Shown piece by piece: positions 24,044 through 24,522 of a stretch of 43,714 nucleotides of DNA; the first letter of the stretch is position 1; every line of letters starts with the position of its first letter. Below the pieces are notes generated by a model. It was not told where the DNA came from. It saw only the letters and a program-made list of their open reading frames with translations, and did not search any database. This DNA is from a virus, in UHGV virus genome UHGV-0175557; one strand, given 5' to 3'. A program made the position numbers and the translations under genes.

Positions 24044-24268
24044 CCTATTGTTAAGTCAGTGACAGAACTGCATAGCAGATACTATCACTTAATCGGTCGA
24101 AAGACGCCGGATAAACGTAACCGGCACATAACAGATAAGAGCATTGAATAATGTAAAGCTGTGCTGCGACGATTATCATACATCTCAGTGCTCTTATCGT
24201 TGTGGTGAATTGCAGTTCTCAGAAACAACCAGAAGATAAGCGCCTGGCACTGCAACCAAACACTCGCT

Positions 24269-24289
24269 GATAAGGAGGTGATCCTTATC
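24269..24289 (+). promoter_or_regulatory. hairpin GATAAGGA-ggtga-TCCTTATC containing TAAGGAGGTGATCC, the exact complement of the 16S rRNA 3' end
   Basis: Direct reading of 24271-24284; no conventional ORF starts at proper spacing. Confidence 0.55.
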
Positions 24290-24457
24290 TTGCTGGCGGG
24301 AAAGCCGCAAATCGTGGGTAAAGCATGTTGTGAAACATCCTGAACTGCGTGTCGTTTTACATAACTGGTTATTCACGTGTCACGCATAGGGGTATGTTGG
24401 GATATCAGGTGTGGATGACCAGTTATGTAAAACCCTCATTATCACCCAGAGCCATTT

Positions 24458-24483
24458 GCCGTCTGTTTAAGACGGCTTTTTTT
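24458..24483 (+). terminator. intrinsic terminator (gccgtct-gttta-agacggc then ttttttt)
   Basis: 7-bp stem and 7-T run, 40 bp before ATG 24523. Confidence 0.75.
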
Positions 24484-24522
24484 CGTGCTAATATAACGAA
24501 AACATTTCTCACAGGTGATCAC

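Follow-up and report, generated by a model that had tools for sequence, protein, structure and literature searches.

A conserved structured RNA with an over-long complement to the 16S rRNA 3' end in a Sasha/9NA-like siphophage, and its possible role as a non-productive 30S docking site

The window analyzed in this study is the whole 43,714-nucleotide (nt) stretch of the virus genome UHGV-0175557, which is 98% identical in the region concerned to Salmonella phage Sasha and other 9NA-like siphophages; by this sequence comparison, it is a Sasha/9NA-like siphophage. Its gap 24044–24522 carries an exact 14-nt complement of the 3' end of 16S ribosomal RNA (rRNA) and no convincing gene, which raises the question of what such an over-long Shine-Dalgarno (SD)-like element does for the phage. 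The element is part of module C (24264..24359, + strand), a conserved structured RNA motif of ~95 nt. We regard module C as a new family of RNAs, belonging to a kind of element that is already known; it has no match in Rfam 15, and our literature search found no description of its sequence or of such an anti-SD-complementary non-coding RNA concept.

The sequence-only reading of this locus had described the complement, one hairpin, one short frame and one terminator, and all four are present in the window. The complement TAAGGAGGTGATCC (RNA UAAGGAGGUGAUCC) is located at 24271–24284 on the + strand and matches the 16S rRNA 3' tail exactly. It occurs once in the window; when up to two mismatches are allowed, 0.16 matches are expected. 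The chance of meeting an exact prespecified 14-mer on the two strands of 43.7 kb is ~3e-4 by arithmetic, in agreement with the earlier estimate of about 3 in 10,000 windows. Its duplex with GGAUCACCUCCUUA has a predicted energy of −25.8 kcal/mol, compared to about −6 kcal/mol for shuffles. The hairpin GATAAGGA/ggtga/TCCTTATC (RNA GAUAAGGA/GGUGA/UCCUUAUC; 24269–24289, + strand) has 8 base pairs (bp); in the predicted fold, it conceals UAAGGA and exposes GGUGA in the loop. TTG at 24290 opens a 17-codon frame, which ends with TGA at 24341–24343. The intrinsic terminator GCCGTCTGTTTAAGACGGC (RNA GCCGUCUGUUUAAGACGGC; 24458–24483, + strand) is a GC-rich stem-loop with a 7-bp stem and five GC pairs, followed by the U-run TTTTTTT; it is conserved in 9NA, SP069 and Klebsiella phage Carvaje, 65–95 nt 3' of module C. 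What did not hold up is that the exact 14-mer and its 8-bp hairpin form the conserved unit. They are features of the 9NA/Sasha subtype alone, and even there Sasha has GACCC in place of the exact string of the window; other subtypes have 4–7 bp alternatives, which are no better than shuffles.

Covariation and a covariance model indicated that the segment around the complement is a real, conserved structured RNA. Loci were gathered by two IMG/VR pattern scans, the second with a pattern that lacks the SD-like part. The first, degenerate DNA pattern gave 26 real loci among 114, the rest being mostly chance matches; a genome scan gave 12 real loci among the 100 checked of 120. At least ~125 loci in IMG/VR and phage records match the anchor pattern, and 76 were confirmed with the model. 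This model, R1, was built on a manual structure with 29 sequences, none of which is of 9NA, Sasha or Carvaje type. R1 matches the window at 24264–24359 (+ strand) with 62.7 bits and an E value of about 2e-15 over its full length (1–93); this is the sole significant match in the window. R1 also matches 9NA, Carvaje and the Escherichia phage ZCEC13, and has no match at the P1, Magnus or Skate loci. In the 29-sequence alignment, 89.6% of the helix cells are paired, compared to 30–45% with the partners slid; the covariation score is 0.43, compared to 0.06–0.12 when slid, and double changes occur at 13 of the 17 pairs. For the 88 matches (84 distinct), 92.1% of the cells are paired (25–45% slid), double changes occur at 14 of the 17 pairs and the covariation score of the distinct members is 0.454 (0.04–0.11 slid), a value reached by none of 500 shuffles; this alignment was fitted to R1 and is biased in favour of structure.

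Module C contains two covarying hairpins. Hairpin H2 (24296–24308, + strand) reads GCGG-GAAAG-CCGC; its stem is GCGG:CCGC, ACGG:CCGU or ACAG:CUGU in the family, with 98.8% of the cells paired. The irregular hairpin P4/H3 (24311–24350, + strand) is formed, in the cmsearch alignment, by AU-GUGG:CUGCGU, AG:CU and the tip AUGUU-GUGA-AACAU with a GNRA loop. Double changes are found at 12 of its 13 pairs across the family; between the window and 9NA, H3 shows one U-A to C-G swap (AUGU..ACAU to ACGU..ACGU). On the 5' side of H2 lies AUCUUGCUG (24287–24295, + strand), which is present in both gathering patterns and invariant in the family; its AUC and UUG are located 8 and 11 nt, respectively, past the G opposite C1535 of 16S rRNA. 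The window has all the marks of a member, namely the R1 match, H2 and P4/H3 with the GNRA tip, and AUCUUGCUG with the 16S complement upstream. Rfam 15 gave no match in the whole window at the gathering threshold, and with E up to 10 it gave nothing relevant in 23500–25000 or at a prophage member; scans of relatives likewise returned no family for module C. By eye, module C resembles the 16S pieces UUGCUGACG, GCUGGCGG and GUUGUGAAAUGU; we took this likeness as coincidence, as a search with E up to 10 still gave no small-subunit rRNA match.

The 16S complement is a hallmark of the family and not an accident of the window. For 58 representatives, duplex energies were computed between the 28 nt around the 5' side of AUCUUGCUG and GGAUCACCUCCUUA; the mean is −19.2 kcal/mol, compared to −6.1 kcal/mol for shuffles of the same 28 nt, and 50 of the 58 beat all 200 shuffles. 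The start regions of 30 open reading frames (ORFs) of the window have a mean of −6.3 kcal/mol and a best value of −11.6 kcal/mol. The complement is universal in the family: all members gathered without the SD-like part in the pattern carry it as well. The family consensus of the SD-like element is rGAGGUGAUC, and the length of the complement is 11–14 nt; variants, among them GGUGGUC (which gives a G.U), UAAGGCGGUGAUC and AAGGAUGGUGAUC, mostly keep the pairing, and a single central mismatch or bulge is tolerated as well. The spacing from the G opposite C1535 to AUC is 6–9 nt across the family and 8 nt in the window, and three members have a hairpin inserted in the spacer between the SD-like element and AUC. 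We also considered one family-wide 5' helix enclosing the SD-like element and rejected it; the best candidates are helices of 4–8 bp whose positions are inconsistent, and shuffles do equally well (median p about 0.5).

Module C is read from the + strand. The sequence-only reading had also allowed one minus-strand transcript that would copy the anti-SD tail. This was rejected: the conserved U.G and G.U pairs of P4 and the U.G pairs of the hairpin at 24355–24432 exist on the + strand only, and R1 matches that strand only. The frame that starts from UUG has six codons (LLTGKP; UUG CUG ACG GGU AAG CCG UAA) in 71 of the 84 members and 9, 12 or 17 codons elsewhere. Compensatory changes in H2 turn its UAA into CAA in the window subtype and Pro into Leu in another subtype. 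Because these changes alter the stop codon or the amino acid, the RNA rather than the peptide appears to be selected. In the 17-codon version, four of the five sites that vary change the amino acid, and the fifth, a synonymous one, is a compensatory partner. Judged from the sequences, the RNA structure, not the peptide, is conserved; the frame is variable in length, its changes track RNA pairing, and the ORFs of the gap have no Pfam or PHROG match. Two regulatory candidates were rejected as well. For a leader-peptide attenuator, the peptide is unconserved, the terminator lies 115 nt past the stop behind one clade-specific hairpin, and the prophage members have no terminator; for a riboswitch or gene-specific cis-regulator, the downstream genes are diverse or absent.

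The family occurs at many loci in phages and prophages of Enterobacterales. In BLAST searches, 24259–24350 plus the terminator matches 9NA (95.7% identity where the flanks have diverged), SP069, Carvaje, in which one transfer RNA (tRNA-Ser) gene ends 34 nt upstream of the match, and Jedunavirus myophages. Among the matches listed, ~90 loci are of prophage type; there the motif directly follows Rz/Rz1 and precedes diverse small ORFs and terminase genes, without a terminator. In virulent phages, the motif stands in RNA-only islands, with a terminator 65–240 nt later. Since these islands have their own terminator, no downstream cistron is needed; the diversity of the contexts indicates that module C is a portable RNA and not the leader of one gene. 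Model-confirmed matches in species-representative genomes come from Enterobacter, Citrobacter, Yersinia, Cedecea and Trabulsiella. One further match is in an assembly labelled Chryseobacterium (L279), which we suspect to be contaminated or mislabelled. Two prophages with module C also carry IsrJ, a Salmonella island small RNA (sRNA), upstream of their lysis genes (L134, 1082–1158; L116, 3635–3708; Rfam, 62–63 bits). The gene for IsrJ belongs to the Gifsy-1 prophage, and these two may accordingly be Gifsy-1-like lambdoid prophages.

From the structure, strand and conserved 16S complement of the family, we infer a function in 30S binding. The reading that we favour, with somewhat less than even confidence, is that the gap is one untranslated + strand array of cassettes, in which module C mimics a translation start region and docks 30S subunits non-productively. 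Its anatomy is an over-long SD, AUC-UUG-CUG 6–9 nt on, one covarying hairpin ~10 nt past AUC and one GNRA-capped second hairpin. The over-long SD/anti-SD helix would dock the 30S subunit; initiation would then be poor, with a non-canonical codon at the P-site position and a hairpin blocking the messenger RNA (mRNA) channel. The likely pay-off would be protection of the phage RNA and the adjoining late mRNA, or local ribosome capture. Several observations weigh against this proposal. The SD-like element has no special exposure (ensemble unpaired probability 0.39, compared to 0.45 overall), and nine of the 14 nt of the window copy lie within the hairpin. All hosts share one 16S tail, which leaves no covariation between the RNA and rRNA to read, and the invariance of AUCUUGCUG is partly forced by the gathering patterns. 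The six-codon frame is kept with its stop in 71 of the 84 members, which would also permit translation. In prophages, the motif adjoins the Rz1 stop and precedes an ORF by 10–30 nt, which fits translational coupling too.

Translation is central to one rival explanation, in which the strong SD drives a real minigene of 6–17 codons from UUG (or AUC) and the act of translation is what matters; we regard this as fairly unlikely, and give the same weight to the work proposed for it, which is either to couple ribosomes over a junction that is not translated or to tie up peptidyl-tRNA, like the lambda bar minigenes. The six-codon frame just mentioned, its usable SD-start spacing, the Rz1 stop lying inside UAAGG of the SD-like element in prophages (UAA, then GUG directly) and the established precedent of the bar minigenes all fit it. 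However, the H2 changes remove the stop in the window subtype, giving 17 codons, and replace Pro by Leu elsewhere, so that lengths of 6, 9, 12 and 17 codons occur; moreover, a hairpin separates SD and start in three members, the motif stands in RNA-only islands without upstream translation, and the codon at optimal spacing is AUC, no normal start. A wider proposal, which we hold to be distinctly unlikely, is that exchangeable RNA islands of enterobacterial phages mimic the translation apparatus, with module C binding the 30S anti-SD in trans and thereby redirecting or shielding ribosomes or blunting defences that target translation; the islands would then combine tRNA-like domains, transfer-messenger RNA (tmRNA)-like tag modules, one 16S helix-11-like piece and the mRNA-start mimic, a composition for which our expectation is equally low.

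A trans-acting sRNA or sponge, freed by tRNA-processing enzymes and the terminator and pairing through its purine-rich 5' segment with CU-rich seeds of host sRNAs or with other RNAs, seems quite improbable to us. The neighbourhood would suit it: a tRNA or tRNA-like cassette adjoins the 5' end (tRNA-Ser in Carvaje, at 34 nt; a T-arm cassette in L014), tRNA-Gly adjoins the 3' end in L090, the 9NA terminator with its U-run follows ~35 nt 3', as in Hfq-type sRNAs, and 3'ETS-leuZ is a precedent for a tRNA-spacer sponge. Nevertheless, ~90 prophage loci embed the motif in a late operon with no terminator or tRNA nearby, no target was identified, and the match is specific to the 16S tail and unusually long. 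It is doubtful to a still greater degree that the UAAGGA:UCCUUA hairpin imitates the SD/anti-SD duplex as a binding site for a ribosomal or phage protein, for example bS21, rather than pairing with 16S rRNA. The window hairpin does reproduce the terminal UCCUUA:UAAGGA duplex, every subtype has some partial self-partner for the SD-like element, and P6 of OLE RNA, an SD/anti-SD duplex mimic, binds bS21 (PMC12054373). The internal partner, however, has no constant place or sequence across the subtypes and does no better than shuffled controls (median p about 0.5); conservation is seen in the single strand complementary to 16S rRNA, not in a duplex. Least credible is that the gap represents the decaying remains of a region of tRNA/tmRNA cassettes, with the 14-mer a product of chance or hitch-hiking, which we consider highly improbable. 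T-arms, tRNAs and the tmRNA-like tag module, which relatives have at the same place, are missing from the window, close relatives differ in the length 5' of module C (84 to 712 nt), and cassettes A and B, described below, may have decayed. For module C itself, decay is already contradicted by the strong compensatory covariation over 84 members from unrelated phage groups; together with the terminator, it is the constant part of the gap, and its SD-like complement is universal in the family.

The non-productive docking of 30S subunits was proposed for module C as one part of a longer array, and the remainder of the gap is also structured RNA. The 447-nt gap RNA folds far more strongly than shuffles on either strand (z about −4.9), which bears out the earlier description of the gap as non-coding and highly structured. 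The absence of a convincing ORF was borne out too: all mechanical ORFs in the gap are at most 60 amino acids long or cross the terminator, and neither they nor the ORFs annotated in the gaps of relatives match any Pfam or PHROG family. In relatives, RNA cassettes stand at this position, not the ordinary protein gene that would have refuted the sequence-only reading. By sensitive BLAST, the gap breaks into short pieces, each with its own distribution; on this sequence evidence, it is a mosaic of RNA cassettes swapped between phages. Among close relatives (L001–L008, L014, L015, L050 and L087), which are otherwise 84–98% identical, the distance from the gp37 stop to module C is 84–712 nt; this stretch is a hot-spot of cassettes, and module C and the terminator form the constant 3' end. 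The same gap of these relatives also holds tRNAs, tRNA-like domains and tmRNA-like tag modules.

The array starts with a 5' hairpin AGUGACAGAACUGCAUAGCAGAUACUAUCACU (24058..24089, + strand), which is found in both the minimum free energy (MFE) and the centroid fold and whose core GAACTGCATAGCAGA is shared with Carvaje. It is followed by cassette A (24094..24127, + strand), a hairpin GCCGG-AUAAACGUAA-CCGGC and then CAC. Matches to cassette A are 32–61 nt in length and 80–100% identical, occur in Klebsiella jumbo phages, Skate-like Salmonella phages and P1, and always lie immediately 5' of a long-stem cassette; the stem covaries (CCGG/CCGG versus CTGG/CCAG). The BLAST piece 24094–24154 has matches in the same Klebsiella jumbo and Skate-like Salmonella phages. 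In the long-stem cassette (24127..24204, + strand), AUAAC-a-GAUAAGAGCA (24128–24143) pairs with UGCUCUUAUC-GUUGU (24189–24203) around a 45-nt cargo in the MFE and centroid folds. This grammar, with compensating sequences, is found in P1, Carvaje, ZCEC13, Magnus, Skate and L050, and the cargo carries a T-arm in several of them. The sequence-only reading had paired CAGTGCTCTTATC (24187–24199) with GATAAG...GCACTG (24236–24252); this pairing is possible, yet the covarying partner is the upstream segment 24127–24143, which gives a stem of ~15 bp with variable cargo. Cassette B, GUUGUGGUGAA...CUGCAACC (24199..24257, + strand), is a T-arm-less form of the tRNA-like GUUGUGG...CCACAAC cassette. It is 82–87% identical over 62 nt (24187–24248) to sequences of P1, P7 and D6 directly 3' of tRNA-Asn and tRNA-Thr, and the close relatives L014 and L087 have a T-arm version at the same place. 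The recurring grammar is ACAAC-long stem-cargo-long stem-GUUGU-GGUGAA...CCACAAC, with stems that covary between copies and cargo that sometimes carries a T-arm; the cassettes of the window are reduced forms without T-arms. In the window, which has neither a T-arm nor a GCA-AAC-GAx tag frame, ARAGORN called no tRNA or tmRNA.

Several side observations concern these cassettes. The long-stem cassettes contain a boxA-like UGCUCUUU, and their 3' strand (24188–24203 in the window, and homologues) reads (G/A)UGCUCUU(U/A); the boxA sequences of rrn and lambda are UGCUCUUUAACAA and CGCUCUUA. As this strand lies in a conserved stem, NusB/E binding is doubtful. Modules resembling the tag region of tmRNA are located in the same gap of close relatives (PJ16, L003, ~1060–1110; L087; Carvaje, L008, ~1085–1120) and in a jumbo phage (Klebsiella phage Magnus, L010, ~586–621). 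They take the form AAAGAUAAAU-GCA AAC GAA GAA CGU UUU CUG AUG GCG GCG UAA UAG; the tags read ANEERFLMAA, ANEEMYLAVA and ANDDVVLMAA, compared to ANDENYALAA of E. coli SsrA, and pseudoknot-like segments follow. These modules received no ARAGORN call, and their Rfam scores are just 21–28 bits. Within a GUUGUGG...CCACAAC cassette of ZCEC13 (L009), the segment 1621–1667 is similar to 16S rRNA in the region of helix 11 (Rfam small-subunit model, E = 9e-8), with what seem by eye to be compensatory changes relative to bacterial 16S rRNA. In Jedunavirus and Skate-like phages (L009, 1231–1780; Skate, L011, ~1100–1640), the cassette unit and the flanking structural genes lie on opposite strands, and the unit of ZCEC13 comes with a promoter-like site and a terminator of its own. 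Where annotations place small 'hypothetical proteins' across the ZCEC13 and Skate units, these are probably spurious.

Between module C and the terminator, the Sasha clade has one insertion, a single-copy, near-perfect long hairpin with 22-nt arms (24355–24432, + strand); it is not present in 9NA, SP069 or Carvaje. The two differences between its arms are U.G pairs on the + strand only, and the hairpin could be an RNase III-type processing site. The gap is flanked by a gp37 homologue (phrog_19242, of unknown function) on the 5' side and by a gp38 homologue (phrog_21889) on the 3' side; the major head protein is encoded upstream and the head-closure protein Hc1 downstream. A promoter-like site, TTGACA-17-TATTGT (24023..24051, + strand), matches 10 of 12 consensus positions and overlaps the end of the gp37 homologue. 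The authors of the AVIO78A annotation placed a promoter at the homologous position, and on its sequence the site could be the putative start of an RNA-only transcript of ~425 nt. The ribosome-binding site and start of the gp38 homologue, AGGUGAUCAC-AUG (24512–24525, + strand), lie outside the RNA. This ribosome-binding site, AGGTGATCACATG, is almost identical to GGUGAUCAC-AUC of prophage-type module C. The window has 12 copies of GGTGATC, compared to 4.7 expected, which indicates that SDs of the GGUGAUC type are in use and that the phage favours SDs displaced toward the 5' side of the anti-SD. The gp38-homologue frames, as annotated or called mechanically from an upstream GTG (9NA, 2072–2617; window, 24349–24933; L005, 1685–2269), pass through the intrinsic terminator. 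The true start is the ATG at 24523 in the window and at 2208 in 9NA (L002); 9NA gp42 and PDP46_0047 look mis-annotated.

Whatever its function, the R1 covariance model improves the annotation of many phage and prophage genomes. If non-productive docking is true, module C would be a widespread phage RNA built on an over-long SD sequence without a gene behind it, and would offer a natural system for the effect of very strong SD/anti-SD pairing in vivo, an old unsettled question. It would also represent a class of RNA-only cassettes that phage annotation has missed or mislabelled as hypothetical proteins, and it would be tractable, since Bas82 KarinMuster, a close relative, can be plated on engineered E. 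coli K-12. If the trans-binding reading were true instead, module C would be the RNA analogue of ribosome-targeting phage proteins.

Like an ordinary SD and translation-initiation region, module C complements the 16S 3' tail and has a potential start at workable spacing. Different from it, module C pairs over 11–14 nt instead of 4–6, with predicted energies of −19 to −26 kcal/mol compared to about −6 kcal/mol for the genes of the window; it has AUC/UUG in place of AUG, no conserved ORF, and covarying hairpins after the start position. The lambda bar minigenes are also phage-borne combinations of an SD and a very short ORF without coding value. They consist of two codons, start with AUG, become toxic under limiting peptidyl-tRNA hydrolase and have no conserved secondary structure, whereas the frame of module C has six codons in most members and 17 in the window and is subordinate to RNA structure. 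P6 of OLE RNA is an SD/anti-SD duplex mimic that binds bS21 (PMC12054373). The window hairpin UAAGGA:UCCUUA likewise reproduces SD/anti-SD pairing in a non-coding RNA; however, OLE RNA carries the anti-SD-like strand in a conserved helix, whereas module C conserves the SD-like strand. Its duplex is subtype-specific, and the helix of the window is only a subtype feature.

T4 species 1 and 2 RNAs and E. coli 3'ETS-leuZ are stable or spacer RNAs of tRNA clusters. The gap RNAs also lie beside tRNAs or tRNA-like elements and are bounded by tRNA processing sites and a terminator; they have no sequence or structure relation to the cluster RNAs, and module C also occurs far from tRNAs, in prophage late operons. 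STAB-SD of Bacillus thuringiensis cryIIIA is a short, unstructured element of a Gram-positive 5' untranslated region, which acts against 5' exonuclease; it is not used for productive initiation, and 30S binding is proposed to protect the downstream RNA. Module C would be similar in being SD-like without productive initiation, and of the prerequisites, the one in the sequence, a long SD-like element, is present; compared to STAB-SD, its element lies within a folded motif of 95 nt in enterobacterial phages. The 30S entrapment leaders, such as the rpsO/S15 pseudoknot and other mRNAs docked on the ribosomal platform, are autoregulatory, serve one gene and need a repressor protein. They share with module C an SD that is free for the anti-SD and a downstream structure that keeps the start region from the decoding channel. 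Different from these leaders, module C is portable, has no fixed downstream gene and is also found in RNA-only islands.

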